Below, in pieces: positions 2,905-49,909 of a DNA stretch of 64,000 bases. The notes under the pieces were generated by a model, which was not told the origin of the DNA, ran no database searches, and was given only the letters and a program-made list of their open reading frames with translations. The stretch's first letter is position 1; each line of letters opens with the position of its first letter. The DNA comes from Sphagnum compactum (taxonomy: Eukaryota), in the NCBI GenBank assembly GCA_965153455.1, contig OZ234494.1, positions 10,292,001 to 10,356,000 on the forward strand. Direction: 5' to 3'. The position numbers and the translations under genes were made by a program.

Positions 2905-2906
2905 GT

Positions 2907-3082: not shown

Positions 3083-3698
3083 ATCTAGTTTTTTGGTCAT
3101 ATCTCTTTTGTTTAAGCTTTTTTGGGTCTGTAACTTTGTGATCTTATAGATCATATAGGAATATATGTGTGAGAGAAATTTCATGTCATTTGGACTTGTA
3201 TTGAGAGAGATCCACGCATCTGAAGTTTCAAGTGCAGATCTGGTTTTTTGGTCATATCTCCTTTGTTTAAGCTTTTTTGGGTTTGTAACTTTGTGATTTT
3301 ATAGATCATATAGGAATATATGTGTGAGAGACATTTCATGTCATTTGGACTTGTATTGAGAGAGATCCAAACATCTGAAGTTTCAAGTGCAGATCTGGTT
3401 TTTTGGTCATATCTCCTTTGTTTAAGCTTTTTTAGGTCTGAAACTTTGTGATCTTATAGATCATATAGGAATATATGTGTGAGAGAAATTTCATGTCATT
3501 TGGACTTGTATTGAGAGAGATCCAAGCATCTGAAGTTTCAAGTGCAGATCTAGTTTTTTGGTCATATCTCCTTTGTTTAAGTTTTTTTGGGTCTGTAACT
3601 TTGTGATCTTATAGATCATATATGAATATATGTGTGAAAGAAATTTCATGTCATTTGGACTTGTATTGAGAGAGATCCAAGCATCTGAAGTTTCAAGT
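3083..3698 (+). repeat. Four tandem copies of a 155-bp unit in the retrotransposon 5' leader
   Basis: Units start at 3083, 3238, 3393 and 3548 and are nearly identical. Confidence 0.95.
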
Positions 3699-3736
3699 TT
3701 GAAGATTGAAAGCGCAAAAGTGTGAGAACTACCACC

Positions 3737-4710
3737 ATGGACAACTCAGAATCAAACATCGATCTCACTCAAATCCTCGCCGCCCTTCAGCACCTTCAAC
3801 AAGAAAATGTTGTGCTTAGAGACTCGGTGACCCGCCTACAGAATCAGCCACCACCTCCTGCCCTAGTACTTCCTGCTCTTGCAATGGCCGCCCAAGAGCC
3901 CAAGATCAGTCTGCCAGAAAAGTTTGATGGAACGCGCCTCAAATTTCGAGGCTTTGTTAGTCAGGTACGCCTGATCATGCAACTACACCCCCGTCGTTAT
4001 TTTGATGACACCACTCATGTAGGATTCGTTGGAACCCTACTCACTGGGATAGCTGCAGCATGGTTTGCTCCCATCTTGGAAACATCATCCCCTCTCCTGC
4101 AAGATTTCAACGCCTTTATGGCGGAATTTGAAGCAGTATTTGGGGACAGTGACAAGGCCAGGACTTCAGCCAACAAGCTGCGTCGCCTCCAGCAAGGGAC
4201 ACGTTCGGCCATCGTCTACGCCTCAGAATTCAGGCAGCTTGCCTGCGACGTCAATTGGGGAGAAGCTGCCTTGATTGATCAGTTTCGCTGTGGGCTTCGT
4301 GATGATGTTCAAGATCTTTTGTTGACACTCGTAGACCCTTCTTCCTTCAGTGAAGCCATCACCTAGGCAATTCGGTGCAATAATCGCCTGTTCGAACGTC
4401 GCCAGGAAAAGAAAGTCACCTCCAACGCCCAGCTTTGGAATAGTCGGTTTACTACGCTCCCCTTAGTTCCCCAAACAACACCAGTTGCCCGACCTACCTC
4501 TTTTGGACCTGCTCCGATGCAGATTGACACAGCTAAGTTTAAATCTTTGACAGAAGCCGAGAAACTTCGCCAAAGGACAAACAATCTATGTCTTTACTGT
4601 GGCAACCCAGGGCATATAGCTCGTCAGTGCCCTCAAAAGCTTGTCAAACTTCAAGTACAAGCTGTGGAACTCCCCAAGAGTTGGAAAACAAGAACATCCA
4701 GTCACAGTAG
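3737..4710 (+). pseudogene. gag: gag (capsid-like domain plus CCHC zinc knuckle), interrupted
   Basis: PEKFDG and LRQG-like (RLQQG) motifs; knuckle CLYCGNPGHIARQC; in-frame TAG at 4364; probable 1-nt deletion near 4670 before the inferred native stop at 4708-4710. Confidence 0.9.
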
Positions 4711-4758
4711 GAGCCGTACGACTGGATCTCACCCAACACCACCTTTGCAAAGGCTCCT
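4683..4758 (+). promoter_or_regulatory. Putative -1 programmed ribosomal frameshift signal (slippery site plus H-type pseudoknot)
   Basis: GGAAAAC 4683-4689; 6-nt spacer; stem 1 ATCCAGTC 4696-4703 / GACTGGAT 4720-4727; stem 2 AGGAGCC 4709-4715 / GGCTCCT 4752-4758. Confidence 0.75.
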
Positions 4759-7700: not shown

Positions 7701-8428
7701 AACTACTAACAGGACGACTAGCTGGACCTACTATCTCAAGCAAAGTTTGCTTATAATAACACAACACATGCATCGAGCGGGATCAGTCCATTCTTTGCCA
7801 ATTACGGTTTTCATCCCAGGTTCAGCCTTGAAATTCCTGGAGACTCCGTAAACCCCTCGGCTGAAGAAAGGGCCACGAGGCTTGGACAGGTTCAACAGAA
7901 CCTTATGGCAGAACTCAAGCTAACACAGGAGTGGCAAAAGAAGCAAGCAGACCGTCGACGCAAGGACCATCCAAACTTCAAGGTTGGAGACAAGGTCTGG
8001 CTTCTCAGAAAGAACATTGCTACCACTCGCCCATGTGCCAAGTTGGATTACAAGCGCCTCGGACCTTTCAAAATCGCCAAATTGGTTGGTCTAGTGGCTT
8101 GCCAGTTGGAGCTTCCACCCCAGTTCAAAATCCACAATGTTTTCCATGTCTCCCTGCTTGAGCGCTATCATGAAAACCCGATCCCAGAACGTCATCAAGA
8201 ACCCCTAGCTCCAGTCGAAATTGAAGGCCAAGAAATGTTTGAAGTTCAGGAGGTCTTGGACTCCAAGAAGATTCGTGGAAAGCTCCTGTACCTTGTCTTT
8301 TGGCGAGGTTATCTTCCTTCTGAAGCTACTTGGGAGCCTGCTGGAAACCTAGTTCATGCCCAAGACTTAGTTAATCGGTTTCACCAACGATATCCTAGCA
8401 AACCGGCTCCATCTGGAAGATGTCGCTT

Positions 8429-8441
8429 GAGGAGAGGATAA
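8429..8441 (+). promoter_or_regulatory. Polypurine tract
   Basis: GAGGAGAGGATAA immediately 5' of the 3' LTR. Confidence 0.85.
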
Positions 8442-8745
8442 TGTCATGGCCTAGGATATTTTGGGATACTTTTGGCAATGTCATGTCCTAGGATATTTTG
8501 GGATACTTTTGGCAATGTCATGTCCTAGGATATTTTGGGATACTTTTGGCAATGTCATGTCCTAGGATATTTTGGGATACTTTTGGCAATATCATGGCCT
8601 AGGATATTTTGGGACTAGTATGGCTCAGGGTTATAAAAGGAGATAGTCTGGGGAACAACCCTTCAGCAGATCAACACCAGTTGATGGGTCAATAAAGCTT
8701 GTCTTGTCTTGTAATTCTCCACTTGTTTGTAGTCGGTCCATAACA
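8442..8745 (+). repeat. 3' LTR
   Basis: Matches 2601-2904 except for 3 substitutions, all in the fourth 37-bp unit. Confidence 0.97.
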
Positions 8746-11339
8746 ATAGGTGCCAAGAATTGGATTATGAAATATACTTAAAATATTTTCAATTTTAATA
8801 GAATATTCTTTTAATATTTATTTCATAGCATACAAACAAAAACCCCTTTATTTCATGTACTTCATAAAATATAGTAAGGTAACCTCCCCAAGAATGAGTT
8901 GGAATGGTTCTGCATACACCATAGGTGATAAGTTACATAACATGTTTGAAACTCGTCAATTAACATCATAGTGGTGTAGATGATAGTTGGCATGGACATA
9001 CAATAATATGGAGGTTGAAAATGACTTACCACATTGGCACTATAATTAATGAATGCCATCATTTGGATTGATTTAAAGGTTGACATTATAGCCATATAAA
9101 AAAAATTGATGTTCATGAGGTTTATTCCACAACAATTGTATATGGACCACAAATCCTGAAAAGGCCAATCTATCAACATGATTTAATTTTAACCTTATAT
9201 GTCAAAATGGGGCAAAACCTTGAAAAACGATTTTTAAATTCACACAATTTGTTGTGTTTAAGAAAATGGGATGGGAGATATGGTTGAATGCAATTGAAGA
9301 ACATGTCTAATGAGTAGGGAAATTGCACATGTGATGCTTGTGAGAACTTATGTTCAAGTGTATTAATGACATAATATTACAAAATTTAACACAATATTTG
9401 AGTTTCATTGAGAAAGAAGAAGAAAGAATCTTCATAACTCCAAAATTTGAAATATATTCTTAGGAATAACAACTTGTTATTAAGTTAATTACCTTGTTTG
9501 ATTTGAGATAAAGAATGCATTTTACAAAGTTTAATGTATAAAGAATTTTTTAAATTTATTCAATTTGTTTTATTACATTATATTTAATGTGTATTCCTTG
9601 AAGAGTTTGAATTGTACTCACATTAGTTATTTAGCATTATTAATAAGGCCAACAAACATTAAAATGCAATTCATGTTTGGTTTGTTGTTGTTGAGTTCAT
9701 GAAAGTTAACATAAGAAGATTTGCACATAAAAACAAAATCATGTTTGGGTGCACCAAGGTGGTTTCATAATATTTAGACCTACATTTTGTACAAGAAAAC
9801 CATGTTCTCATGTTCATTAGGTGAATTTGATGAAAAAATAAATCACATGAAAATTTTAAAGTCATGAAATTTTGAAAGAAAAGGCTACACAATAAACAAT
9901 TCTTTCGTTAAATTGTTTGGCTATTTTTCAATTCATTAGGTTCAAAAAATTTAACTTTAGATGCAGGTTAGATGTGTAGGAAATAATCATGCCAAAAAAC
10001 ATTTATAGTTGATTTTAGAACTCATTTTGGCATATTTCACGTTTTTGCTTATAAACCAAAATATTCATGCATAATTATTACACATGTGAAAAATCACCAC
10101 CATTGCATGAATGATCTTATCTTAGACCATTCAAATTTTCTTATTTAGATTTGTTTCATGCTAATATTATTTGTAGAAAATAGCCCTAAGAAAGTCCTTG
10201 AATTTTTTTTCCTTTCTTTTGGCACCCCAATTGTGAATGCACCCTTGTGTCATTGGAAATTCAACTAAATTACAAAACCTAGTCTTGGCAAGAGAAATTA
10301 GGTGCGTAACAAGTTTAAGCTTGGGCCAAAGGCATAGGCCACATTATAGCAATTAAGTTGATGTTCCTCACTACTTTGCATATATTTTTTCATGTGTTTT
10401 TGGGATGGGTGCACATAAAGAACAAGCCTTGACTTGAAACCTACACCCTCGCATCTTTTTGTGGATGTCCATGTGATTGAAAAAAAATACATGAATTCAA
10501 ATCTCCATGCCCAATATCTTGAAATTTCATAAGGGGGCAACCATATAGTTCCAATACTTGTGTGTACTACAACAATTGGACCACATGCATTGCAACAATT
10601 ACAACTAACTTGTCTAGGCACTACAATTAGGTCCTAAACCCTTCACCATTGGTTGCCAATTTTCTCAATTGTAATGTCATGTTTCTTGTGTGGCATGTTG
10701 TTTGCCACTTTCGTTGATTAACATTTACTAACTTCTACATGAATGAACCATGATCTTGGATTTTGATTATCTCCTTTTGTGATAAAATTTGTCCTTCAAT
10801 GAAGCAAAGATGTAGTTCTAAAAGAGAAAGCAAGTTGACAATCATAATTTTGCATGAAGTTATTTTGATTGAAGAATTACTTAATCATGCAATAAAATTG
10901 ATTATGAATGTCTTCTTCAAAGAACAATTATTATCATCTATGTAATGGGCCCCCTACATAGGTAAATTGTTAAATTAATTAGTGGAAAATTTATGACCAC
11001 TTTGTTGGATTAGTATTAACAACAAAGGGGGCACCTACTATTACTATGCAACTTTAGTATTTAGTAAGAACTTTTATTTGATTTGCATGGTTTATAACAT
11101 TTTGTGTTTTAGATTCTATAATTTATTACATTTGGAATTAAAATAGGTTTAAAGGGTCTTGCAAAAACTTTTGGCATGAATAAAACTTTTTGCTAGGTTT
11201 TATTTTATTTGCACTAACACAATCAAAAGAAAAAATGACAAAGAACACCAAATTGGGAAGATGCAGTCAAACTATGTATTAGGTATATTCGTAAAGTCAA
11301 CAAAATACAACACCAATACCTTGAATACCAGTACCTATC

Positions 11340-12570
11340 TAAGTTTAACCAATAGGTGTAGCCATTAGATTTAGCCATTAGATTTAGCGATTATGTTTAG
11401 CCATTAGATTTAACCACTAGGTTTACCCAAAATTTCATCAAATTTTAACAATTAAGTTTAATTTAAATTTAGCCATTAAGTTTAACCATTATGTTTAGCC
11501 ACTACATTTGGCATTAAGTTTAGCTAAGTTGAACCATTAGATTTTGTCAATATTATAACCTAAATTTAACCACTAGATATAGCCATTAAGTATAACCTAA
11601 ATCTAACCATTATGTTAAACCATTAGATTTACCCATTAAGTTTAACCTAACCTTAACTAATGTTATGTTTAACCATTAGGTTTAATTTATATTAGCCATT
11701 ATGTTTAACCACTATATTTAGCCATTAAGTTTAACCTATGTTATATGTAAGTTAAATCTAGTGATTAAATCTAATGGCTAAATATCAACTATCTTTAGCC
11801 ATTATATTTAGGCACACTGTTTACCCAAAGTTTAACCACATGAAGTTTATCCATTAAGTTTATCAACTAAGTTTATGTTTAACCCAGGTTTAATCATTAT
11901 GTTTAGCCACTAGATTTAGCCACTAGGTTTACTCAAAGTTGAACTATGAAGTTTAAACATTAAATTTATTTGGTAGGTCTATGTTTAGCCAAGGTTTAGT
12001 CATTATGTTTAACCATTATGTTTATCAATTAGGTTTAGCCACTATATATGTTTAGCCACTAGATTTAACCACTAAATTTAACCAAAGTTTAACCATTAGG
12101 TTTATTAACTAAGTTTATGTTTAACAAAGGCTTAATCATTATGTTTAGCCAATAAATTTCACCACTAGGTTTAGCCAAAGTTTAGCCATGAAGTTTAGTC
12201 ATTATGTTTATTAACTAGGTTTAGCCACTATGTTTAGTCAAAATTTAGTCATTATGTTTAACCACTAGATTTAGCCATTCGGTTTAGCCAAAGTTGAGTT
12301 ATGAAGTTTAACCATTAGGTTTGTCAACTAGGCTTAGCTAGAACATGTTTAGCCAAGGCTTAATCATTATGTTTAACCACTAAATTTAATCATTAAGTTT
12401 ATCCAAAGTTTAGCCATGAAATTTAAACATTATGTAAATATAAATTAAGTTTAACCAAGGTTTAAACATTAAGTTTAATCACTACATTAAACCACTAAGT
12501 TTAACCATTTGATTTAACCATTATATTTAATTATTAGTTATCACTTAGGTTTAACCATTGTGTTTAGTGA
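11340..12570. repeat. Degenerate short-unit tandem array (tttagccattag / tttaaccactag variants, ~12-13 bp)
   Basis: Dozens of variants of tttagcca(t/c)tag and gtttaaccattag are visible. Confidence 0.85.
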
Positions 12571-27599: not shown

Positions 27600-27970
27600 A
27601 AAACTCAGCCATTGAACCAAAAAATCAATCACAAAAATGCATCTCACAAGGACAAATTCACTAATTAATGAAAGTTCAACCATTGAACCAAAAAATTAAC
27701 CATGAAAATGCATCTCAAAAGGAAGAATTCACCCATGGAAATTGAACCCATTGAAATAAAAAACTAACCATGGAAATGCATCTCAAAAGGAAGAATTCAC
27801 CCATGGAAATTGAACCCATTGAAATAAAAAACTAACCATGGAAATGCATCTCAAAAAGAAGAATTCACCCATGGAAATTGAACCCATTGAACAAGAAAAT
27901 CAAATGTGGAAATAAATATCTCAAGGAGGAATTCACACTTGTAAAATCCAGCCATTGAACCAAAAATTTC
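27600..27970 (+). repeat. 68-bp tandem repeat, ~5 copies, inside the hAT element
   Basis: gaagaattcacccatggaaattgaacccattga at 27722, 27790 and 27858, with decayed flanking copies. Confidence 0.85.
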
Positions 27971-28699
27971 AATAATTGAATAAATTTAAAACTAGCATGT
28001 TCAACCATTGAATATTTGGGAAGTTTAGCAATTGGAAAAAAACCAACCATGGAGGAAATTGGAAATCAAGTGTCTCAAATCCGGCCATTAAATAAATTAG
28101 ACATAACACAATCACCTCTAGACAAAAAAGAAACCTATTCTAGTAGAATATTTTGCTATAGAACCACTAAAAGACTTGAATTTTAGCTGTCGTGACAAGT
28201 AATATGTGAGATCATGTTTATAGACACAACTGAAAGTTCTAAAATATCAACAAAAATAACATCATCAACAAACAACATAACGTCCGCAAATGTAATTGCA
28301 ATTATTGGAGTAAAATCATGCACTAAAGGTCCAAAAACTTACCTCATTTTCACCAGGGTATTCAATTTGCAGGGGTTCAAACCAAAATCCACACATGCCT
28401 TTTCCCACAAATTTCAAATTTACCTTCCCTTGCTAGATTTCTTTGGCCATGTGATAAACTTTTGGATGTCAACCCTAGTGATGACATTCTTCATTTTGCA
28501 CATTAAAATTCCTTAAAATTCTTCATTTAGCACCTTGTCGAAACATTCTTGACCCGCGAATGTTTACCAAATTACACTGGTTGATCTATAAAATTCGTTA
28601 AAATTCTCGCTTCTTTGGGCTTCCATAACATTCTCGCACCAAGAATGTCATAACTATGATGTCAACCTAAGCATATTTGATTGATGCATAATGTAATAT

Positions 28700-29700: not shown

Positions 29701-30920
29701 CAACACCTCCTATGTTAGAAAGTCGTCAATGTCAAAATTAGATAAACCTTCATGTTCCATTCCCATATTGACAATGCTACTACTGCTAACATAACTTGCA
29801 AAGCACCTAGAAACACATAGCATGTTAAAAAGATTAACACTAATGCTAGTAGGAGCTGAAGAACCCATGGCAAAAAACTTAAGAAAAGGAAAGGTGAGAT
29901 TGATAAATTGCCAAGAGCGATCAAAAGAACTCTAGCAAATGAAATAGCACTAGGAGAAGATGACATGATGACCTATAGTAGACAACAAAAACCTTTTTAA
30001 CTCATCACTTTTGGAATCCAAAAAACAAAAAAACATAAATTGCAAGTTATAGTAGAAGACATGAAACATGAAATAAAAGACATTGAGCATAGATAACAAA
30101 AAGTAGAGGTTGAATGAGGGGGAAAAAAAAAAGTACGTCACCTTTGTCCATATCCATGCAAACCATCTTGAATAAATGTGTCAAAGTGTAAACAAAAGTG
30201 GTAATGTCTTCTTGCCATTTTGAGGTCAAATTCAAGGAGGAAGATTGTGACAAGCTTTCTCCATTGTCGTGATGGAAATTTGAACTCAACAATTGCAAAT
30301 TACAAACCCTAATCCTCACAACAAAAACACAAGGTTTTCTAATTCCACTATGGGTTTCAATTAGAAAATCAAAGGTATTTAATTCCACTAATGTCGGGTT
30401 ACAAACAAAGAACCTCAGGTATTTGAATCAGAAATGCGTCAGGTTTTTGGCAAAAAACCTTGTCAACTTTTTGGACTTAGGTCAAAAGCAAAGTTGGGGG
30501 TTAAAAATCTAAATGCCAAGTTGAAAGTGGACGCAAGTTTTTTTTTCGACAATTGTCAAGTCAAAGGTGAAGTCGAGGTTTCACGAACTTAAAACCAGAG
30601 GTTATATACCCATTTATTTAATCTAAAAACTAACAAAGAACCAAGTGTGTTTTAAAAACCGCGCAACATTGGAAAAGACCAAGTATTGGTATAAATTATT
30701 GGTTCAAACTTGACACAAAGTGTGAATGACTTTTGAAGTATTATGTGTGGATCTAATGGATGGGCATGTTCCATAAAAGTGCATGCATTTACATGAGGAA
30801 TTTTTCAATTGATGACGAAATTTTTTAATATGAAGTTTGAACATACCCATCAAGGGCAAAGTCATTATTCAATAAATTGTTTGTTCTTCATGTAATTTCA
30901 TCCCATATGTTTTGTTAAAT

Positions 30921-31235
30921 TGTCATGCCTGTATGCATGGCCTCATACATGATAGCCGGTTACGGGCATGCCAATCATGTTTTTAGGGTTAATGTACGTT
31001 CTTAGGTTATTGTGTGCTATTAGGTGTTTTAGGGTTATGACTTGTTTAAGGTTTCAACTTTGTTGATGGTTGTATAAAAGGTCAAGCTCATCCTTTCTCT
31101 TGTCAGTTTTTCTACAATTCCTTTGTTAGGGAGAGTTTCCTCCATAGTCAGACTGGATTTTTAGATGTTCACGGCGACTATTACATGGCCATCATTTACA
31201 TACACTACGTTTTCTTTCCTTCTTTTTGATTCAAT
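30921..31235 (+). repeat. Repeat A1 (contains TATA at 31073)
   Basis: Aligns with 37526-37858 throughout, with an ~18-bp indel. Confidence 0.95.
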
Positions 31236-31237
31236 TC

Positions 31238-31248
31238 TAGAAAAATTG
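31238..31248 (+). promoter_or_regulatory. Putative self-priming PBS of the split-repeat element
   Basis: TAGAAAAATTG pairs with CAGTTTTTCTA (31104-31114, 31 nt after the TATA start) with one G:U pair. Confidence 0.6.
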
Positions 31249-32174
31249 CTCTCTATTGCTTAATGTTGAAAATGACAAATTATTCCTAGCTTTGAATTTC
31301 TTGGGTTTCTTTTGCTTATTGGTTTCTAGTGTTCTTGAGTTGTTACTACTTCTTCTTCTTTTTCTACTCTTGTACTGCAGCTACAATAGGTTCTTTGACT
31401 CCCCAAAATTAGAGGCTTTCTTCTCCCAGTATAAGCTACAAGTTGTGAAGTTCTGAGTTCCGAAACTTCGGAAGGGGGAAGGAGTGAGCAACTCCAAAGC
31501 TTGTTTTATTGCTAGCTTTAGGTCTTGGGAGCACGTACACACACACACACATAAGGTTTGATTGCAGTACAAGATCTGCACCACTCATGCAACCCCACAT
31601 ACACTTGCTTTCCTTGTATATGGGTTTTGAGGTTAGCATCTAGGCTGTGCACTCTTGTGTGTTTTTGAGCTTGCAGTCATGTAACGAGTTGCCCTTGTAG
31701 CAGCTCTGGAAGAAGAAGAAGAAAATTTTTAAAAACAACACAAAGTAGAAGAAAAAAATTTCTCTCTTTTCTTCTGCACACCATCGTTACAGAGCTTGTG
31801 GACGCAAATCGCTCTGTAGCATCATCGCCATCCATCGTTGTCGCCATTCATCATAGTTTCGTTCGACATTTGTCACAGTTCTGTTCGACATTCATCACAG
31901 TTTCATTCGATGCCCATCACCTTTTGTTCGACGTCCGTCAATGTCCGTCCGTTCGATTTCGTCCCCATGGTTCCGTCCGTCTGGCCCCTTTCGTCCATCG
32001 ACATCCGTCCACAGACGTGTGTCCATCAATGTCCGTCCGTCACTGTTCATCCCCGTCGACATGTTGTATTCTTCAAATCATATGTACTGCGTACATACGT
32101 ATCCGATACCATATTTTTCAAACCGTATCTAGTGCCCTGTATTCCTACAAAATTTTAGGGCATGGGACAACAAC

Positions 32175-33905
32175 ATGTCCTCTGATGATGAGAACACTAT
32201 TGCTCAGCCAGAGCCAAGGTATCAACTACGAAGCAACACACAATCATTTGAGCCGATTTTTTTGAACTCACAATCTTCACAATCGTACCATCAAGCGTTT
32301 ACAGCGCCACCGTCATCCAGTACACCTCCTACCAGGAACTCAGGTTTAGGTAACACTACATCAATGGTACATCATAATCCATTTGGAAGGGTTAATTAGT
32401 GGGGTACGCCTACTACCGCACCAGCTTTCACACCATCATCATATATTTCGTTGTAAGCCGTTACCTCTACACCCATATACACCATGGAGGTCGATAGTTC
32501 CTTTGGGAGAATTGAGAAGTTCAGTGGAAGGCCAGGTACTATTTCTTTGAGGGAATTCAAGGCAACTTTTTCAATTGTGGTTTATGAATTGGAGTTCAAG
32601 TATGGCGCTAATTACACTAAGGCGTTCGCATTCAAATAATCGGCCCATTATGTGCATTATGAGGCATTGGATGTCTACAAGCAACATTCTCTCAGGATTT
32701 TGGGCGTCACCCAGATCCCCAATCTAACTTATGCCACAGCCATTGCCACCGCCTCTCAAGCTGCATTACAAGCTACCATTGCACATCATGGGATTATGCC
32801 CAATAATCTAGATCCGGTACCTACTTCAATAAATCTTTCTCCTCAACAATTCATTGTTGCTATCGCAAACATTCCTCCCATCATCGATGCACCAGCTTTT
32901 GTTGATCCAGCGGGGGAATTCTTTTGAAATCTTGAGCTGGAATTTCCGGTTAAGAGTTCTGAAAAAATTCTTTACCTTGCCACCTTCTCTCAACAAAATG
33001 ATGAAACCTTCAAGATGCTCTATAGGAGGCTTCTCAAGCTTAAAGAGGATACTTAGAGCATCACTAACCTAGAAGCTGCATATTAGTATCTTCGTTCATT
33101 GGAAGGTATTTCGACACTCTATGCGCAGGTTTTGCAACGGGTTTTTTGTAGAATTTGGAGACTCGTACACTTTGCTAGATGTGTACAACAATTCTGACAA
33201 GCTGGAACTGGCTCATGCACATTATGAGGCCAGTACTATGAGGCCTCCATCACGTTCAAGGCCTCAGCCTCCACCAGCTACGCCAACCAGATCATCACAT
33301 TCTTTTTCAAGGGTTAAAGCAGTGCACTCAGCTACACCCTACCTTCTTGCAACTACTGTGGCAATCTTGCCCACAAAGCTAGTGAGTGCAACATTCTTTC
33401 CGAGGATCTCTTTTGTGATTATTGTGGAAAAGAGGGACATCAGGAAGTTGTTTGTTTTGCCAAGTTCCTAGAACAAAAGTAACTCTGATTACCACGGCAA
33501 AATTTGCCAACATCTTTCGTTGCCCCTCAACCAAAAGCCAAGGCACCTCAGCCTTCCACTCAGGTTTTCCCCACCAAGGGTAGTTCTAGTAAGAATGCTA
33601 AGAAGAAGGAGCACAATGCTGACAAGAGGGAGGTGCTTCAAGCCCATGCTGCTCAAGTTCAAACTCTACAAAATGAACTCGAATCATTGAGGGCCCAACT
33701 TGCTAATCTAAAAGGCAAGTCTTCCCAACCAGCTAGTCATGCCCAACCTGTACAAGGTTCAGGATCAAGGGAAGGACCTCCTAGGTCGTTCTTTGGCCTC
33801 TCACATGATGCCGTGGCTGGGGAGTATGTTTTTTCCAATATGCACAATGGACCAAGCCTGGTGTATCGTCATGCTTCAGCCACTTGGGACGAACCCAGCC
33901 CATAA
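32175..33905 (+). pseudogene. gag: gag-like ORF with two CCHC zinc knuckles, disrupted
   Basis: EKFSG motif near 32515; CNYCGNLAHKASEC and CDYCGKEGHQEVVC at ~33345-33460; stops and frameshifts. Confidence 0.75.
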
Positions 33906-34339
33906 GAAAGAGATAAGGCTATGGGGTTCCAAACTGGCACTACTAATTAGACCAAGGTGACTAGATTGGAATGTAACGCTCTATTGGGGAGAGGCATGGA
34001 CCTGAACTCCCTTACATGGTTGTTGGTAACCTGTGTACTTTTTCAAATGTACACAACACCAGTACTGATTCAATCAGCTTGCAGTTCTCGCGATGCAACT
34101 ACATGGGCACCCCGACCATTTACACTTTCTATCTTCAACACTCTACACTTCACTCTTAGTGTTGGGGGGGAGGAGGTACCATGTTGTTTTTGATACACCT
34201 AGAGGTACATCAGCTTTTGGAGAAACAATTACAACCTTCTATGAATTTGTGCAGTTGGATAATGGAGAACCCAATACACCAAGTTTTTCAAACACATTTT
34301 CCAACTCCATTCCATGTGTTTCCAACTACCCTTTCATTA

Positions 34340-37302
34340 TGGGGAACCAGCTCACCAAGAAGGAGAAAGACCAGGTCACAAACTTGCTAATTAAGTATGA
34401 GAATATGTTCGCATTCTCAATGAAAGACTTAGGTAGGTGTAAGACCATGCAATTCTCTATAGACCTTACAGATGAGACACCCATCTATCGAAGGAGGTGT
34501 AGGTTGAGCAAGCATGAGTGGGAACACGTAGATGAAAAATACAAAGAGCTCCATGAGGCTGGTCTCATTCAGCCATCAAAATCTGATTTCGCAGCCATTA
34601 CAATAATGCCAACAAAGAAGGATTCAACTGGATTATGGATTGAGAAAAGGATGTGCGGGGATTATAGGCCTTTGAACTTGGTTACACCTTAGGATAAGTA
34701 CCCCATGCCCATCCCTGAAGAACTGTTTGATAGCATTGGAAACTCAAACATCTTCACAATTGTGGATTTGAGGCAAGGCTTCAACTAGATTGTGCTCGCT
34801 GCGAAGGATTACAAGAAAACGACATTCCATGGAAGCAATAAGTTGTGGGAATGGCTTATGATGCCTTTTGGATTGAAGAATGCACATGTCTTCTTTCAGC
34901 AAGTCATGGACCAAATTCTTGAAGGGGTAAATTTCCTAAAGTGCTACATAGATGACGTCCTAGTGCATAGCAAGGGACTCCTACAGGACTTGGCTCATCT
35001 TGAGGAATTATTCAAGAGGCTCCACGAAGTCAATATGAAGATCCATCCTAAAAAGTGTGAGTTTGTTGTCACCTCAGTAGTCTACCTTGGACACAAAATT
35101 TTGCCAAATGGTATTATGGCTCATTGGGCCAAAGTAGCCATTTTGGAGATGCCCAATCCTACTGATGTTCACACTTTGAGGAGCTTCATCGGACTATGTA
35201 ATTACTACAGGATTTATGTCCAAGACTTCAGTACTATTGCTCATCCTTTCTATGCATTGTCAAAGAAGGATGTTGCTTGGACATGGAATGAAGAGGCTCA
35301 GGAAGCTTTCAACACACTCAAGGAAAAGCTTTCAGAGTTCCCCATTCTAAAAAGACCTGATTTCAACAAGGTCTTCATTCTACACACTAACTGGAGTGCT
35401 CTTGGTATTGGTGTTATTCTTGGCCAACTTGATGAGAAAGGCAAAGAATATGTTATCGCCTATGCATCCCGAAGCAATAACAAGGCTGAGAGCAACTACT
35501 CTTCATACGAAGGGGAATGTCTTGCTGTTGTATGGGCCATCATACATTTCGGGCCCTATTTTTATGGCACCAAGTTCACTTTGTATACCGACCACTAGCC
35601 TATCAAGTGGTTGATGACCAACGACAAGCTTATTGGTAAGTTAGCTCGTTGGCGTTTATATTTCAGGATTATGAGTTCAAGGTTATTCATCAACCTGGTA
35701 TTACACATCAGAACGCGGATACCATGTCGCAGAGACCCCTCACTACCTCTGAAGATTTCTTAGAAGCCAGGCAAGACTTCGACCACATTCGAGCAATACA
35801 TGTATCTTATGCATCTAGTTATCTTGCACTACTGCAATGTAACCTGGTTGAACATCCCTTTGTGGATATATGGGAAGACTTGGACACTCTAAGGTTTTTT
35901 CAACGTGGGGAATATCCTCCCCAAGTTACGTCAAATCATCGGGATCACATATAACAACGATCCAAACGCTACTCATGGAGGGACAATCACCTCATCCAAT
36001 GCTTACCACAAGGTGACAGAGTGGTTTCTTCACCACATGAACGGCTTGGTCTTATTCAGAAGGTACACTCGGAGCTTGGAGTTAGGTGTACTTATAGCCT
36101 TCTCGCTCCTCATTATCATTGGAAAGGTATGTATGCTCAAGTTCGAGACGTCATTGCTAGGTGTGCACAATGTGATAGAGTGATAATTTCCTTTTCCTCT
36201 CGACAGCTCATGCTTTCTCCACTCCCTATTCAAGGCATGTTCTATCCCTGGTCATGTGATTTAGCTAGAAAGTTACCACAGACCTCCAGGGGTAATGTCT
36301 ACATCATGATTATGATTTAGCATTTTTCAAAGTGGGTTGAGCTTGTTGCGCTGCCGGACAAGTCATCACACAACACTAGCCATGCTTTCTTACAACAGGT
36401 GCTAAGTAGGTTTGGGGCTTGTGCTGAGTGCCTTACTAATCAAGGATCAGAATTTAGAGAAGAATTCCAAGACGTACTTAATCATGCTCTCATTGACCAT
36501 CGCCAAACTTCAAGGGATCATCCCAAGCTGATGGCCTTGCAGAGAGGATGGTTCAGACATGTAAAAAGGGACTTCGAAGGATTTGCCTCATTGGGAACAA
36601 AGAGGATTGGGACGTGGCCCTACCTTACATCGCCATGGGTACAGGATGTCCAAACACGCCTCTTTGTCTCATTTTGCTCCTTACTTTCTACATTTTGGGA
36701 GACATCCCATTCCACCTTCTTCCATTACTGCTCAAATGGACCAAGTTATGGACTTGGACTCCCCAGTCGCTTGGGTTAGGGTCATCGCAGAGAGGGTTGC
36801 TCTATTCAGGAAGGTTATGTTCATGGCCATGGAAAACTTGTCCATTGCACTGCATCGAGACACCTTACGATATGCACACACACAAGGTGGCAGTTATAAA
36901 CCTAAGGTGAGACAATTTGATGTTGGTGGCTTTGTGTATCTTTAGCAGCAACCTAATGATACTCTAGACACTTCTTTCGGTCGCACTATTTTGAGGATTA
37001 AAGCGATCAGGCCTTCAGGTGTGTTAGAGTTGCAAGGAGCTAATGGACGCACAATTCGGGATCACTCCAAAAACTATGCGCCTTGCCACCTCCCGAACTT
37101 GGATCCTACCATCATCACGTCAACTTGGACTCCTCCATTCAACTATCCATGTCAGGTATGTCAAAGGACAAACAATGCTGATCAGATGCTATTTTGTGAT
37201 AATTGTAATGGTGGATACCATCTATTCTGCCTCAAGCCGGAGCTCATTCAAGTTCCCACCGGCATTTGGTACTGTTCATCATGTTTTCTTGCAGCACCTT
37301 GA
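34340..37302 (+). pseudogene. pol: pol: RT, RNase H, DDE integrase and C-terminal PHD finger, disrupted
   Basis: RMCGDYRPLN, MPFGLKNA and YIDD; LHTNWS and EGECLAVVWA; VHSELG..CAQC; WSCDLA, LTNQG and ERMVQT; PHD CQVC..MLFCDNC..YHLFC..WYCSSC. Confidence 0.92.
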
Positions 37303-37342
37303 TTTTTACTCAAACCATGCCACGCTTTTCCCAGCTTAGGTC

Positions 37343-37350
37343 AGGGGGGA
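37343..37350 (+). promoter_or_regulatory. Polypurine tract directly upstream of repeat B1
   Basis: AGGGGGGA abuts ATACATGAG at 37351. Confidence 0.7.
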
Positions 37351-37523
37351 ATACATGAGAATTTCATTTCAGCCTCCTCTTGTGCATTGTATACATGTGT
37401 GTGCATCTTTTTTTGGTTGATTAGTTTCTACCTTTGACTGGTTTTAATCTTTTTGTTCAGTAAAATTTACTATGGATTTACACCCTTACGACACCGTACA
37501 TCACGACACTACACGTCACGATA
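37351..37523 (+). repeat. Repeat B1
   Basis: Aligns with 37859-38032. Confidence 0.95.
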
Positions 37524-37525
37524 GC

Positions 37526-37858
37526 TGTCATGCCCATATGCATGGCCTCATACATGACGGCTGGTTATGGGCATGCCAATTATGCCTTTAGGGTTAATGT
37601 ACGCTCTTAAGGTTGATGTACTTCTTAGGTTAATGTGTGTTACTAGGTGTTTTAGGGTTATGGCTTGTTTAAGGTTTTAGCTTTATTGATGGTTGTATAA
37701 AAGGCTAAGGTCATCCCTTCTCTTGTTAGTTTTTCTATAATTCCTTTGTCAGGGAGAGTTTCCTCCATAGTTAGACTGGATTACTAGATGCTCACAACGG
37801 CTATTACACGGCCATCATTTACATACACTACGTTTTCTTTCCTTCTTTTCGATTCAAT
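37526..37858 (+). repeat. Repeat A2
   Basis: Aligns with 30921-31235; separated from B1 by the dinucleotide GC. Confidence 0.95.
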
Positions 37859-38032
37859 ATACATGAGAATTTCATTTCAACCTCCTCTTGTGCATTATAT
37901 ATATGTGCGTGCATCTCTTTTTGGTTGATTAGTTTATACCTTTGACTAGTTTTAGTTTTTTTGTTCAGTAGAATTTTATTATGGATTTACACCCTTACGA
38001 CACCGTATGTCACGACACTACACGTCATGACA
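37859..38032 (+). repeat. Repeat B2 (right terminus)
   Basis: Copy of B1 ending CATGACA, followed by the TSD AAAT. Confidence 0.95.
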
Positions 38033-41000
38033 AAATGTTTTTAATGTTATATTCACAATTCCTATTTTATTTTATTTTGTAAGATATGGTTTGTGGTTGG
38101 AACCTAATTTAATGTGAATGAGATTTAAATTATTTTGTGTGCTTAGGGTTTATCTTAAATGTGTGGTTTTGTAGTCTAAAAATTTCAAAACACATAGAAA
38201 GAATATGAGGTGTGGTTGACCTCAAGGTTTGTTGATTTTTTATGTTTTACTTTGAATTTGGATTCTTGTAACTACACGTCTACATTTTGTAATGCAAAAG
38301 ATGAATTTCATTTTTCAATGCTAGAACTAGATTAATTTGTGTTCAAACATTGGTATTTGTGTTTGAAACAAATGTGTTGCAACTAGGGGTGGGAGTTGAT
38401 GTAAAACAAATTATTGATCTATTGAAGAAGCTTCACATGTGAAAGTTTTGATTTTGGGGTGATTTTCCATGAATCAACATTTAAAATATTAAACTTCAAA
38501 TAGGGCCTAACATATATCAAAAGGCATATCACATGATCAAATGTCTTCAAGCACATAGGGATTGTGTACCATAGAAAAGTAGGGTTGTGAAGCAAGTACA
38601 CCATCAAATGACCACCATCACTATTTATTATGGAACTTGGGGGTGGTTGACAACAAATGAACATGGATCACCATCATCAATTGATGTAAAACTCAATTGC
38701 AAGGTGGTTCAATTGTTGCAGATTGAGGTTGAAAGGACATTGCATCCAACTTATGATTGTCATGGCATTAAAAGCTTGAATTACCATTGCCATGGCACAA
38801 GAACATGGAACCCTTGCTACAACTTGCCCATGGTTGTGAATTTTTTAAGGCAATGCACTTTTGTTCAAAACTTTTGAGTTCAAGCACAAGCTAAATTGCA
38901 ACTTGGGAACATCTCGAACTTCAAATCCTATATAATAAAATTGGGATTTGAATTTCATGAATATTGGGTAATTTTCAAGGGTTGGAAATGGTTACAATAT
39001 GGTGGTGGGATTGGTGTCAAGTCATGTGTGTAGAAACTTACAATGGCCATTGATGGTGCCCATCAATATCACACTAGTCCTTCAAGGTTTTTCCAAACTT
39101 CAAAGCACCAAGGGTTCACAAGGTTTAAATGTCACACTCTATATCACAAGCTTGATTTTTGTCTTATGATTTTCATCCACAAATTGTAGGCACGAACATC
39201 AATAAGTTGGATGATTGTTGGCAAATGTTCAAACAAATTTGACCTTATGCGTATATCAAGTAGCTAGTTGGTGAATGAAGGTTGGTAACCAACCATAGTT
39301 TGGAGCATATAAATTTGGTTTTATTACTAAATGTATCATGGACATTTCTAATATTGTGATATTTTCCTATTCAATGATACGATATGACATTTTTTTGTGT
39401 ACATCATAATTTGCATTCACCCTATCCAAATATTTAATAAGTATCATAAAGATACCACTAAAGAAAAAGATTTTAGCCCCAATATAAAAAAACAGCAAGA
39501 GGTTTAATTTTGAAATTTGGATTCAATTTGGAAATTCATTGTAGTCCTTCATATAAGGTTAAATTCACACCTTTTTTATGCCATTGGATTCTTGAAAAAA
39601 ATTGTGCATGTGGCAAAAATGAATAATGTTTAAACTATAATTTTTTGGAGGTTATTCACAAGCGCAAAAAATGGGTGGAGTTAGTGCACAACAATTTGTC
39701 AATTCAACAATCAAACATCCATGTGGGTAAACATTACTTACTATTCTCACATGTTAAAAGGAATGTTACTCCATCAATAGACATGGAAATTCACTCCATT
39801 AACTTTTTCTTTTTCTTTGATAGCTTGTTGTAATATGTCAAAAAATGAAGGGTAATAATATCCATGCTAGTTGTTTAATTATTATGTGATTCCCCCACTA
39901 TTGTTTGTTGAGTTATATGCATGTGCTTCCTATCATTATGTTGGTTGGGCTATTGTTTCTTTTTAGGAAGTAAAGGGATTTATTAAGTTGTGTCTCATTG
40001 ACCTACAACTTTGAATAAAAACATGTTATGGAGTTGATAACTTGGTAGTGTGTGATTATTGTGTAAGATGAGAGAAACCCAAGGTGAAAGGTTACAAACC
40101 TTCCCATTTGTGTTAATTGTCATAATGAACTTGAAGAATTATAATTGGACCTTGATGTGATTCATAATCAAACATGGGACAAGGCTAACAACCAATTCAA
40201 ACCATTATGTAGGTCCTACTTGTCATGGGCATGAAAACTACCACAACAATGAAATTTCCAAAATACACAAAACATGTCTAAATCTAAATTTAGCCATCAA
40301 ATATGATATTCAAAGATAAATACACAAGGTGTGCAACAAAAAGGTTAAAATGAAAATTTATTATGATAAAATAGGAAAACATGAACACGCATTAGAAGGA
40401 GATGATGCCTAATTCACCATATAATTTATTACGTTGTGTAGTGAATTAGGTAGACTTTTGTCACACTAGAAGCAACCTTTTGCCTATTAATCAATGACCA
40501 ATATGATCACTATGGACATGTTATAATCATTACACATGAATAGAATTTGGCTGTTTGAATTAAGGATAAGGTTTAAATTTATGGGGCATAATGTATGTGA
40601 ACTTGAAAATGGTACAACTCACCATCCTTAGAAGGATGTGTTCAAAGTTTTGAAAAAAACAACTTAGACCACAAGGTCATTAGAGATTTTTCAAAAAAAT
40701 TAACATTTTTGTGATTTCCTTTGGGGGAAGGGAGGATGATATTGATGACCCTAGATCCATTAGAGATCAAATTTCAAAAAACAAGTGGGCATTGTTTTGT
40801 CCTAAAAATGGAAGTTACATTTCAAGACATGAATGTGGGCCAAAAGGTTAAAGAATTTGAAATTTAACACTCTCTTGGGCCTATTTCCTTGGTCATGACT
40901 TAGCAAAAGACCTTTTCAATGGCATATCACACATTCCAATTGGAGCTTATTTGACCCTTTCATTAAACATTTTAGTGATGAAAAATTGAATTGCCAATTC

Positions 41001-47841: not shown

Positions 47842-49909
47842 TTATGCTGCATAAAGCAATGTAACAAATGCCATAAACTCAGGGTCTTGCAACAATCTAC
47901 AAGTGACATGAGGAGGAAATTTGAGGACAAAAGCCCAATCATCAGCAGGTGTGGATTTGGGAAGCCAGTAAAGAAAAGCATTAGGAAGTCTGAAGTAATC
48001 AAATTTGAGACAACAAGGCTTACCCCACCCAAAATCACAAGACGTGAGCGAGTCATGAATCAGCCCTGCGACCATCACGTCTCTCTCGGGACGAAATTTG
48101 GCCGTAAAAGCAAAATTCTTCTCTCGCTCCATCCGGTTGCTGAAGGATTGAATGCACTCCCCAGTGGTGAATCTCTCCAGCGAGTTCTGGATCGTCTTTG
48201 CAGCATACCACATCTTCCTGTGCACAAGCTCCCCAACAGTAGTCACGGCAACTGCATCCAGTATTGCGTTTCCAAAATAGTTTGAAGGTATGTTGTCGCA
48301 TCGTGTTCTGCAGTTGATGGCAGGTATGAATTGGGTATCTTCCTCTTCTGGAAGACTGCGAGCTCGAATACTTGCTCGCCATACCAATGCGGAGATGGCT
48401 ACGTAAGAGCTCAGATTTCCCAGTACTGCAGCACACATGTTCTTCCCTTCTGTTGCATGACTAGTAGTGATCATATTTGCATCATGTTCTGCATCATCAG
48501 CTAGATATTCCTGTGCTAGTTGAGATTTGAGCTTCTTCAGCAGCTCCACTTTCACTTTCATGAACAACATGCAGCTTGATGAACCTGGTTTCATGCGGGG
48601 TCCGTGAGCCACCAAGATGGAGTTTGGAAACACCTCTTGTTTCATCCATGTCGGTGGAAGCTGCTGCTGCTCCGGCGGCATCGTCATCGTAGTAGTACTG
48701 ACTCCTGCACTCGGTGCTGTTTCTGAAATATTACTACTACTGTCTAGTGTCATGTGCGGCTGCAAATTGAGGATGTTTATGCGTGAGCGAAAATCGAAGG
48801 CTTCATGGGAGATTTGCAGGCTCTCCCCCTCAGTGCGAGTAACTTCAGCCCATGAGCTTACGAACTGTGCAAAGGAGGGTCCATCCACAGCCGCGTGACA
48901 GTACATAACCCCGACTGCGTATCCACCCTTGTCGAACGTCGTGAGCTGTTAATTTCATGAAATTTTTGGGAGACTTAGAGATTCTTCAAGTTCATGCAGA
49001 ACAGATCTTTCGACCCAATTAAATCCGAGTCCTTATATTCACAAGGAGCTCTTGGATGATTCCCTTGTGGGAAAATTGTCTAACTTCACTTCCAAGAATA
49101 GACTAAAAACGCAAGTAACAGGGAATCGTACTTAATATTGTATTCAAAGCTCAGCCACATCCAAACAAAGGGACGTTTGGAAGTACTCTAACCTGGGCAC
49201 CAAAGAGAGGAGCATCAGCTTCGAGACTCCCAATCTCCTGAAAACTAGCGCGATCAAGGGGAAAGAAGTTTTCATAGGTATAACACGACTTATCGTCCCG
49301 AAGCTCCTCGAGAGAGATAGGAGACGACGCCTCCACAAAAATCACTCCGCTGTCGTTGCATTCGATAGCCAACGTCCCATCTCCTTCCCGCACCAATCGT
49401 CCTACATGAGCAAAGAACATCATCGGTTCATCCCCTCGAAAAAGGCCACTGGTTCATTTTGTAAGCCAAATTCTCGACCGTCGATAAATGAAGTCGACAT
49501 TGCAAAATAATTTTTGCAATGGGTTTCAAGATCATCTGTATTCTCAGTTACCTGCGAGTGGGCGGCACTGGTCCAGAGCTTTTGAGAGGCTTTCTCTCAT
49601 CCTAACACTGGCTAATCCGGAGTTGAAGAATCCTTCCCCACTGCAGCCGCCGTCTTCCACAGCTTCTGGGTGGTGATCAAACAATAGCAATTTGAAAAGG
49701 AACCCAGTCTTGACCCTGCACATGTCAAATCCAGTGAGCGGCAAGTTACGAAATTGAGAATTCCAGGTAAAATGATGAATATCGCCCAGTGAGCCCTGCA
49801 GCTTGCAACTGGGCTTCACTAGCCATGAGTTCTGTACCAGCACTGGAAAGTTGGGTGGCCAGTCTAAACCACCACTAGTAGAAGAAGAAGAAGACGAAGA
49901 CTCCATCAT
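47842..49909 (-). CDS. BAHD-family acyltransferase, 3 exons, ~556 aa
   Basis: Exons 49909-49552, 49401-49193 and 48945-47842 with GT-AG introns in frame; PLAGRL, HAAVDG (HxxxD) and DFGWG motifs. Confidence 0.93.

Follow-up and report, generated by a model that had tools for sequence, protein, structure and literature searches.

Split direct repeats serve as a hallmark of tyrosine-recombinase retroelements; the family described here regularly combines them with a DDE integrase and target-site duplications. The question of how an integrase-bearing element comes to carry such repeats was raised by a copy found in a 64-kb window (the whole stretch of DNA analyzed, to which all coordinates refer).

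Layout of the window copy and its family

A preliminary description of the locus had claimed the split order A1, gag/pol, B1, GC, A2, B2 and a flanking 4-bp target-site duplication, AAAT. A repeat search and blastn matched this layout to the base, and the duplication was read on both flanks. The features are as follows.

30917..30920, + strand: left copy of the target-site duplication, AAAT, matching 38033-38036
30921..31235, + strand: A1, the 5' A repeat, starting TGTCATG (repeat search, blastn, sequence)
31073-31080, + strand: TATA box within A1
31105-31116, + strand: predicted transcript start and self-primer motif AGTTTTTCTACA, within A1 (sequence)
31105-31235, + strand: R-U5-like part of A1
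31236..31247, + strand: putative self-priming primer-binding site (PBS) TCTAGAAAAATT, pairing with 31105-31116
31248..32132, + strand: untranslated leader, partly low-complexity, weakly conserved in the family (low read depth at 31835-32101)
32133..33905, + strand: gag-like region with broken open reading frames (ORFs) (zf-CCHC_5 match in the relative L012)
33847..33881, + strand: breakpoint zone of an internal deletion (loose ends at 33837/33847)
34789..35598, + strand: reverse transcriptase (YIDD motif) and RNase H (Pfam)
35955..36779, + strand: integrase in shifted frames, with the H2C2 zinc finger at 35955-36320 and the DDE core at 36321-36779 (Pfam)
36946..37302, + strand: C-terminal PHD finger, domain at about 37150-37284 (Pfam)
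37343..37350, + strand: polypurine tract (PPT) AGGGGGGA, adjoining the 5' side of B1 (sequence)
37351..37523, + strand: B1, the internal B repeat, starting ATACATGAG (repeat search, blastn)
37524..37525, + strand: 2-nt spacer GC, center of the palindrome formed by B end, GC, and A start (sequence)
37526..37858, + strand: A2, the 3' A repeat (repeat search, blastn)
37859..38032, + strand: B2, the terminal B repeat, ending CATGACA (repeat search, sequence)
38033..38036, + strand: right copy of the target-site duplication, AAAT (sequence)

A1 and A2 are 85% identical over 333 columns with one 18-nt indel (gap-free identity, about 90%), A2 having one more 18/19-nt tandem unit than A1, and B1 and B2 are 91% identical; blastn found no further A or B copies in the 64-kb window. 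The A2/B2 joint reads ..TTCAAT-ATACATG. The inverted ends TGTCATG...CATGACA noted earlier hold for the window copy, which starts at 30921 and ends at 38032, but not as a family trait: B ends in CACGACA in 32 of 60 B copies and in CATGACA in 10 of 60, and the perfect 7-bp inverted end is a peculiarity of the window copy.

A Pfam scan of 10 + strand ORF pieces of the window copy matched RVT_1 (E 2.5e-18), RT_RNaseH_2 (E 1.3e-33), Integrase_H2C2 (E 2.4e-10), and, at the pol C terminus, a PHD finger (E 1.5e-12); the rve match (E 6.6e-5) is weaker than the Pfam cutoff. The pol order of reverse transcriptase, RNase H, and DDE integrase is that of Ty3/gypsy, and related proteins of 929-1350 aa carry PF00665. 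Neither these 10 pieces nor 10 from the related locus L012 gave a Pfam match to a tyrosine recombinase, in agreement with the initial reading of a Ty3/gypsy element with a DDE integrase and without a visible tyrosine recombinase. The window copy yielded no protease, and support for gag is limited to a weak zinc-knuckle match in L012 (6064-6468; zf-CCHC_5, E 0.0067). The nearest named protein to the reverse transcriptase-RNase H segment is from the liverwort Calypogeia fissa (78%); Klebsormidium nitens proteins are among its homologues at 42-53% identity, and the ORF of this segment had no match in viral contigs.

The window copy of pol is interrupted by numerous stops and frameshifts. The insertion as a whole is old and broken and has lost about 2.2 kb internally; in relatives of full length, the missing segment holds a Dnmt3-like methylase domain. 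A broken PF00145 methylase fragment (E 4.3e-8) is present in 58 of 80 related loci, while the window copy is without a methylase; the best solved-structure matches of the fragment are all DNMT3A/B/C, though weak (E 1e-4). Every copy examined is decayed, and the 80 loci hold a single ORF of at least 500 aa.

The family census comprised these 80 related metagenome loci, with duplicates of the same locus merged by flank. The order int-PPT-B-2nt-A-B was found at 20 independent 3' ends (19 loci and the window copy), int-PPT-B followed by unrelated DNA at 18 others, and flank-A-leader at all 23 independent 5' ends; in no copy does B adjoin the 5' A. Two complete direct LTRs are thus absent, the 5' end being A only and the 3' end B-GC-A-B in the window copy and the 19 loci. 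The 4-bp target duplication is perfect in 10 of the 13 elements with both ends; among complete A-int-B-A-B copies, it is perfect in six of eight and matches at three of four bases in the other two. The A-int-B-A-B layout is a family property, and the normal genomic form of the lineage appears to be A-PBS-int-PPT-B-GC-A-B.

The preliminary description had named conventional copies elsewhere as what would make this locus a one-off; the 23 5' ends and 38 3' ends include none. That a conventional LTR element (AB-int-AB or BA-int-BA) was rearranged once at this locus, or that the layout is an assembly artifact, is almost certainly not the explanation. Nothing speaks for it except that the window copy is old and damaged. 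Against it, 19 further independent loci, drawn from separate assemblies and each with its own flanks and duplications, have the same layout, and so do contigs from sequencing runs of two related organisms, where the B/GC/A, A/B, and PPT/B joints are all present. At least three related organisms have a very high summed read depth for the family, which is not a copy number, and the family probably adds considerably to the genomes of those organisms.

The flanks of the window copy had no match in the 80 related loci. From other contigs, we infer, indirectly, an empty site in relatives. X8 and X13 contigs begin near 30775, from which 141 letters onward is 30916, and the 370-nt X13 contig covers 38034-38266 from its letter 142; an 881-nt contig covers 30503-30785 and has 598 letters over, where an element-free junction would be expected to have 599. 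In one raw RNA run, 103 reads touch the stretch, all less than 95% alike, and 92 of them lie only partly on it, all at 30739-31834 save for a trace in 37709-37975; these reads say nothing on expression of the window element.

Primer sites and the predicted replicated repeat

Primer sites tell which ends reverse transcription should make. A G run of at least five directly precedes B in 37 of 39 independent junctions, and the 12 nt after A pair with a motif starting 32 nt past the TATA box. With G-U allowed, 11 of 12 pairs form in the window copy (31236-31247 with 31105-31116), and 13 of the 18 5' ends tested reach 11 pairs or more; in L046, both sides are altered and 12 of 12 Watson-Crick pairs are preserved. 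Elsewhere in R-U5, the best pairing by chance is 8-10 of 12, G-U again allowed. In the predicted fold of the R-U5-PBS RNA of L035, 15 bp link the 5' end to the PBS (z -4.27); none of 200 shuffles equaled it. No tRNA-type primer-binding site was seen by eye after A or B. The pairing indicates that the stretch after A is probably a Tf1-type self-priming site, with transcription predicted to start at the AGTTTTTCTAGA motif in A. Six of the 12 paired PBS bases form the self-complementary TCTAGA.

With a PPT at the start of B and a PBS at the end of A, the LTR made by reverse transcription should read B-GC-A; the earlier proposal that the replicated LTR is B+A is thus supported by the PPT adjoining B and the self-priming PBS adjoining the end of A. 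The PPT and PBS border this predicted LTR, not the genomic ends, and the integrated ends therefore differ from those that reverse transcription should make.

The primer sites bear directly on an alternative in which the element replicates in the manner of DIRS and PAT elements but with a DDE integrase. A linear A-int-B-GC-A-B cDNA would be made directly and inserted end-on, from an RNA spanning the 5' A into the terminal B, with the internal B-GC-A serving as the template that restores the missing termini. Such a scheme needs neither end joining nor palindrome cutting, and the TG..CA ends and 4-bp duplication suit a linear substrate. It is hard to reconcile with a PPT and PBS whose positions imply a cDNA beginning at the start of B and finishing at the end of A, and no primer site is visible beside the start of A or the end of B. 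We consider it unlikely, and the joints between repeats, described below, bear on it further.

From cDNA to the integrated form

The reading that we favor, at a probability of roughly 55%, is that a cDNA with B-GC-A repeats has its outer ends joined and its internal palindrome opened by the DDE integrase, yielding A-int-B-GC-A-B. Transcription would begin within the 5' A, at the start set by the TATA box, and continue past the R part of the 3' A, and ordinary reverse transcription would give B-GC-A-int-B-GC-A. The outer ends of this cDNA (the end of A and the start of B) would not be integrase substrates and would instead be fused to each other, creating the A/B joint. The integrase would act on the palindrome ..CACGACA-GC-TGTCATG.. 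of the PBS-proximal LTR, nicking after CA on both strands, 2 bp apart, to leave two processed ends with 2-nt 5' overhangs, whose insertion with a 4-bp stagger would produce the genomic form. Joining could precede cleavage, by way of a 2-LTR circle, or follow it, by host end joining. Sequence is the basis for the predicted transcript ends and B-GC-A cDNA as well as for the proposed joining and palindrome cleavage.

The repeats behave as though they were regenerated together rather than inherited separately. Nearest-neighbor ranking of 40 A sequences placed the other A of the element first for 10 of 16 paired sequences, second for 5, and fifth for 1. No alignment column splits A5 from A3 or Bi from Bt, the largest frequency differences being 0.35 and 0.24, respectively. 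A5 and A3 are unsplit even in R-U5, where the separate inheritance implied by a directly copied linear cDNA would permit drift. For B1 and B2, partner ranks spread from 1 to 49 of 59, and nearest-neighbor pairing is uninformative because B is too conserved. An origin of B by divergence from the R part of A was considered and rejected, local alignment scores being 18-21 where shuffles averaged about 19.

The two kinds of joint differ in constancy. The A/B joint is canonical in 11 of 21 cases, has 1 nt more in three, 1 or 2 nt fewer in five, and larger deletions in two, while the spacer between B and A is exactly 2 nt in all 19 independent copies. This difference (length variation in 8/21 against 0/19) fits joined cDNA ends, and the A/B joint looks as if it were made anew each time by end joining, although length changes at this AT-rich site could in part be later slippage. 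Were the A/B joint copied from RNA, as direct synthesis of the linear form would have it, it should be as constant as the spacer. The -2 variant, found in different subfamilies (L015 and L042), also speaks against a copied joint.

The preliminary description had proposed a 2-LTR circle cut at the B/A site. The end-joining character of the A/B joint favors this proposal, but the circle as such does not account for the one-sided layout. Since the two palindromes of a closed 2-LTR circle are identical, the mirror permutation A-B-GC-A-int-B would be expected about as often, and this form was seen at 0 of 23 5' ends. An additional asymmetry that confines cleavage to the PBS-proximal palindrome would be needed. 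The alternative of direct linear synthesis would account at once for the missing mirror form, and a one-sided layout is the rule in the split-direct-repeat tyrosine-recombinase elements, as far as these are covered in the parts consulted of PMC4157794 and PMC7192593. The window copy and L046, the only one of the 80 related loci to match the leader start of the window copy, share an asymmetry in which the 5' A is one tandem unit shorter than the 3' A; neither model predicts that this asymmetry is inherited.

The 18 independent 3' ends that finish after the first B suggest a further possibility, that A-int-B is the primary product, cut from both LTR palindromes or from a 1-LTR circle, with A-int-B-GC-A-B as a minority by-product. 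In its favor, perfect duplications flank three of four A-int-B copies (L027, L044, and L054) and the one solo A-B (L047). The two forms are, on the other hand, about equally common (20 versus 18), and the transcript of an A-int-B element would lack the second R, at its 3' end, that the first strand transfer requires. A-int-B and solo A-B forms with the duplication kept would also result if an A-int-B-GC-A-B copy recombined unequally, B1 with B2 or A1 with A2, as in solo-LTR formation. We regard A-int-B as a primary product as improbable.

If the joining and opening of ends proposed above is correct for this family, it may extend further. We suggest, tentatively, that a whole streptophyte lineage with DDE integrases joins its true cDNA ends and opens an inherited LTR palindrome. 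On this view, split direct repeats would reflect a strategy of reverse transcription and end processing rather than tyrosine recombinases, and DIRS, PAT, and Ngaro elements could stem from a gypsy-like stock of this kind that swapped its integrase for a recombinase. Whatever the mechanism, split repeats here co-occur with a DDE integrase, and the hallmark therefore does not identify the integration enzyme. The family is also likely to be misannotated by standard LTR finders, which search for a matching pair of terminal repeats with TG..CA boundaries.

Relation to known systems

The preliminary description had called the pathway possibly undescribed, but the architecture is already in print. 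The legend to Fig. 4c of de Mendoza et al. (2018, PMC5890265) describes KnitGypsy-Dnmt3 of Klebsormidium nitens, with Gypsy domains and DIRS-type repeats in the order A-coding-B-A-B; in our literature search, covering sources in part, this was the only Gypsy element with split direct repeats. The likeness may extend to the Dnmt3-type methylase inside the Gypsy pol, for which the PF00145 fragment in the full-length relatives of the window copy is a candidate counterpart. The host differs, being an alga rather than a member of a land-plant lineage, and the window copy has lost its methylase by deletion. The main text and legend of PMC5890265 give no termini, duplications, primer sites, or mechanism. 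The window family is a further member of a barely described kind, and it appears to bring the Gypsy type with a Dnmt3 domain, described from a charophyte alga, into a land-plant lineage. New here are the PPT adjoining B, the putative self-priming site, the proposal that genomic copies are the predicted cDNA permuted at its internal palindrome, and the contrast in length between the A/B joint and the spacer.

TOC1 of Chlamydomonas (Day et al., 1988) is reportedly another green-lineage retroelement with an unusual terminal-repeat arrangement. It differs in being classed with the DIRS elements and in being non-autonomous, PMC9940879 labeling it a "non-autonomous DIRS retrotransposon" in the part consulted.

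DIRS, PAT, and Ngaro elements are not known to have an integrase-type target-site duplication; the window family, unlike them, has integrase-type duplications of 4 bp. PAT-like and Ngaro elements, as presented in the portions seen of PMC4157794 and PMC7192593, share with it the repeat order A1, coding region, B1-A2-B2 and an internal junction uniting both terminal sequences. The window family differs from them in its DDE integrase, with no tyrosine recombinase found, and in its TG..CA ends, its duplications, the PPT at the start of B, and the putative self-priming site at the end of A.

In Tf1, an 11-nt primer is released by RNase H. The likeness of the window family to Tf1/sushi elements is that a site adjacent to U5 can pair with the 5'-most bases of the transcript rather than with a tRNA, here as read from sequence with a predicted start. 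The likeness lies in the priming site, not in clade membership, and those elements have two complete LTRs. Among plants, the Tcn1 and TAR lineages are predicted to be self-priming (Neumann et al., 2019, PMC6317226, consulted in part).

The closest parallel to the proposed cleavage is with retroviral integrases, which, according to the parts seen of PMC1905944 (HIV-1), PMC1180852 (foamy virus), and PMC4372172, cut palindromic LTR-LTR junctions. In both cases, the integrase would cut an internal palindrome of joined termini to produce integration-competent ends. In retroviruses, the palindrome comes from joined cDNA ends and its cleavage is at most a side path, whereas in the window family the palindrome would be inherited inside each LTR, the cDNA ends would form the other, non-palindromic joint, and cleavage would be the main route. 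The family thus poses, for a natural system, the concrete question of whether a junction-type internal site can be the normal substrate of an integrase.

Repeat layout in the window and in the family

The split direct repeats of the preliminary description are real and sit at the coordinates given for A and B in the list below.

Features of the window, by position
2601-2900 and 8442-8741, chromovirus terminal repeats, 300 nt, 99% alike
2601-8741, chromovirus, with ORFs for gag; protease-RT-RNase H (688 aa open); SH3_Tf2-1 and chromodomain tail
2887-3806, tandem array inside the chromovirus, period 155 nt, 5 copies
11843-12451, tandem array, period about 43-115 nt, 6 copies
27670-28009, tandem array, period 68 nt, 4 copies
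30921-31235, repeat A1
37343-37350, polypurine tract (PPT), AGGGGGGA, directly before the internal B
37351-37523, repeat B1
37524-37525, GC, separating B1 from A2
37526-37858, repeat A2
37859-38032, repeat B2
47842-48948, minus strand, open 368-aa frame, plant acyltransferase (PF02458 Transferase, E 1.2e-31), presumed to belong to a host gene

Aligned over 333 columns that include one 18-nt indel, A1 and A2 are 85% identical, or about 90% with gaps left out; B1 and B2 are 91% identical, and blastn found no further copy of A or B anywhere in the 64-kb window. The element begins with TGTCATG, ends with CATGACA and is flanked on both sides by AAAT. As had been claimed, no tyrosine recombinase is found: a Pfam search of its 10 plus-strand ORF pieces gave none, returning instead RVT_1, RT_RNaseH_2, Integrase_H2C2 and a C-terminal PHD finger, with the rve core below the Pfam threshold. 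The window copy has many breaks in its reading frames and measures 7.1 kb, against about 9.4-10.1 kb for full-length relatives. All copies seen are old, as judged from A pairs that are 7-13% different and from broken frames.

Several observations concern the surroundings of the element. A 55-nt “goes back” joint at 30743-30797 occurs in contigs of two related organisms, and the bin to the left of the element has much greater read depth than the right flank; another repeat may enclose or adjoin the element. Poly(A) RNA reads of run X21, which is from the same species, align to brief portions of the leader (31330-31723) at less than 95% and continue into unrelated sequence; of the 103 reads, 92 overlap the stretch only in part. 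Their probable source is another transcript with shared low-complexity sequence, not this element. A second Ty3/gypsy element at 2601-8741, a conventional and young chromovirus, offers a normal-LTR contrast within the same window.

Scanning metagenome contigs with the RT-RH ORF gave at least 600 matching stretches, at least 571 of them encoding a relative, and A, B and the internal gag/pol part (int) were aligned to the best 80 loci of these relatives (81-90% amino-acid identity), loci with common flanks being merged as the same insertion resampled. Among these 80, the 3' end reads int-B-2nt-A-B in 19 independent loci, as in the window, and int-B followed by unrelated DNA in 18. All 23 independent 5' ends, comprising 20 plus 3 from second elements on the opposite strand, run from flank through A into a conserved leader, and B adjoins the 5' A in none of them. 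The preliminary description had named conventional LTRs elsewhere in the family as the case against its reading; no copy in the 80 loci has such a pair.

Target duplications were scored only where one locus holds both element ends. They are perfect over 4 bp in six of eight A-int-B-A-B copies (AAAT, ATGT, TGTG, TTTA, CCAC and CAAT), the other two agreeing at 3 of 4 bases, and in three of four A-int-B copies (TGCA, CCAA and ATGG), the fourth, locus L022, being without a duplication; a solo A-B in locus L047 is flanked by a CAAT duplication. The B|GC|A, A|B and PPT|B joints recur independently in sequencing-run contigs from three organisms, the window's own and two relatives. Given this recurrence in independent loci and in relatives' contigs, without conventional copies, the split-repeat layout is the family's normal form. 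Summed contig depth of the internal part is hundreds to thousands-fold that of the flank, a depth that is not a copy number.

A contig from run X1, of the window's organism, joins 38027 to 37351 with 7 other letters between, that is, the end of B to the start of B in a B-B arrangement without A. At L054 (3674-4063), a duplicate of the first 93 nt of A precedes the full 5' A, and it is this outer copy that the ATGG target duplication fits.

Putative primer sites, joints and the predicted LTR

In 37 of 39 independent junctions, the internal B is immediately preceded by a run of at least five Gs. The 5' A is followed without a gap by TCTAGAAAAACT, a putative primer-binding site (PBS) that is the reverse complement of AGTTTTTCTAGA; the latter lies inside A, its first base 32 nt past the TATA box, and appears to begin at about the expected transcription start. 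In the 18 5' ends taken into the pairing test, 5 having been left out after a pattern search, the two motifs pair (G-U allowed) at 11 or more of 12 positions in 13 ends, at 10 in 2 and at 9 in 3; by chance, other places in R-U5, part of A, reach at best 8-10 of 12. Changes on both sides preserve 12 Watson-Crick pairs in locus L046, and in the R-U5-PBS fold of locus L035 the 5' end pairs with the PBS over 15 bp (z -4.27), a stability matched by 0 of 200 shuffles.

On sequence grounds, this complementarity reads as a signature of self-priming of the Tf1/sushi kind. Self-priming is the mode of the Tf1/sushi group, and the window family would share it through the complementary site after its 5' A. 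In its available text, PMC6317226 predicts self-priming for some plant lineages. By ordinary reverse-transcription rules, plus-strand synthesis would begin with the base that opens B and minus-strand synthesis with the one that closes A, and the resulting LTR would be B-GC-A. The transcript itself would be expected to terminate past the R part of the 3' A, perhaps within the terminal B. The structural reading, an LTR of this form together with element ends that lie at an internal palindrome, is well supported; the earlier proposal that the replicated LTR is B+A gains from the plus-strand G-run adjoining the start of B and the self-priming site adjoining the end of A.

The two junctions differ in precision. 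Between ..ACA at the end of B and TGT.. at the start of A, the spacer is exactly 2 nt in 19 of 19 cases, mostly GC but also GT, AC, AT, TA and AA, and the B-2nt-A junction is the palindrome formed by two integrated termini; it looks to be inherited through RNA. Of 21 independent copies, 11 show the canonical A|B joint (..AAT|ATACATG), 3 have gained a single base there (T, C, A), 5 are short by 1-2 bases and 2 show larger deletions; the -2 form, which could reflect joining on AT microhomology, is found in different subfamilies. This joint looks to arise anew at each insertion by imprecise joining of two cDNA ends.

Neighbour ranks were taken among 40 A sequences, after 11 same-locus duplicates and short pieces had been dropped. 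Of the 16 paired sequences, 10 have the A from their own element as nearest neighbour, 5 have it in second place and 1 in fifth; distances between partners are 0.09-0.13, whereas the medians are 0.14-0.23. In the alignments, no single column tells 5' A from 3' A or internal B from terminal B, the largest frequency differences being 0.35 and 0.24, respectively; taken alone, B varies too little for neighbour ranks to be informative. The nearness of partner A copies and the lack of separating columns show that both members of the A and B pairs are copied from one template per transposition, LTR-like, and not inherited separately. Sequence relatedness between A and B was ruled out, since their comparison shows none.

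In both the window and L046 (3009-3323 versus 12134-12467), two independent insertions that differ in their duplications (AAAT and TGTG), the 5' A is one 18/19-nt tandem unit shorter than the 3' A. Because the extra unit lies upstream of the TATA box, an inherited asymmetry is predicted by neither replication model, and parallel slippage or something else may be responsible.

A proposed route of integration

In the route we propose, the outer ends of a B-GC-A...B-GC-A cDNA would be joined to each other, and the product would be opened at the palindrome of the PBS-adjoining LTR to give the genomic form. If both strands of ..CA-GC-TG.. were nicked just past CA, the nicks, 2 bp apart, would yield ends with a recessed CA-OH and a 5' overhang of 2 nt, equal to the products of 3' processing, and insertion with a 4-bp stagger would follow. 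Integrase cuts palindromic LTR-LTR junctions of HIV-1 (PMC1905944) and foamy virus (PMC1180852), according to the available text of those reports.

The preliminary description had a 2-LTR circle cut at its internal B|A site. A closed circle of this kind would hold two identical palindromes, so that the other cut would yield A-B-GC-A-int-B, a mirror form found at 0 of 23 5' ends. A circle step is plausible, its simple version being incomplete. Possibly the palindrome is cut while only the left LTR is double-stranded, the host joining the outer ends later. The main rival, also possible, is a DIRS-like scheme in which linear split-repeat cDNA is produced directly; it accounts for the missing mirror form but leaves unexplained both the positions of the two primer sites and the variable A|B joint. 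The A-int-B and solo A-B forms could be direct products of double cutting or the outcome of later recombination between repeats, and the observations fit either.

Methylase segment and known relatives

About 2.2 kb of the full-length relatives is deleted in the window copy at about 33847-33881. This segment, located between gag and RT, holds a broken C5-methylase fragment (PF00145, E 4.3e-8, at 8439-9095 of locus L012) and is present, bearing PF00145, in 58 of the 80 loci; solved matches of the fragment are all DNMT3A/B/C, at weak E values of about 1e-4. Beside it in L012 are ORFs of 385 and 148 aa with no family match. Comparison of window positions 30500-38500 with family contigs of two related organisms gave C>T and G>A at about 500-560 places each and A>G and T>C at about 205-230, the former being twice as frequent. 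The excess is the pattern expected from methylated-cytosine decay, and it occurs in a family formerly carrying its own cytosine methylase.

Among the 120 RT-RH matches listed, the nearest named homologue is from the liverwort Calypogeia fissa (78%), Klebsormidium nitens proteins stand at 42-53% identity, PF00145 occurs in 7 and a PHD finger in many. A literature search for Gypsy elements with split direct repeats found only PMC5890265, whose Fig. 4c legend describes KnitGypsy-Dnmt3 of K. nitens as having a DIRS-type repeat structure with Gypsy-typical domains; the architecture, earlier thought possibly undescribed, is therefore already in print. Mechanism, termini and primer sites are not given in the available text of that paper on KnitGypsy-Dnmt3, which does report purifying selection on the Klebsormidium family. 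The window family likewise combines Gypsy domains with DIRS-type repeats, and its full-length relatives, unlike the window copy, hold a Dnmt3-like methylase fragment. It fits the KnitGypsy-Dnmt3 type, a kind so far barely described, to which it adds a member and fresh leads on mechanism.
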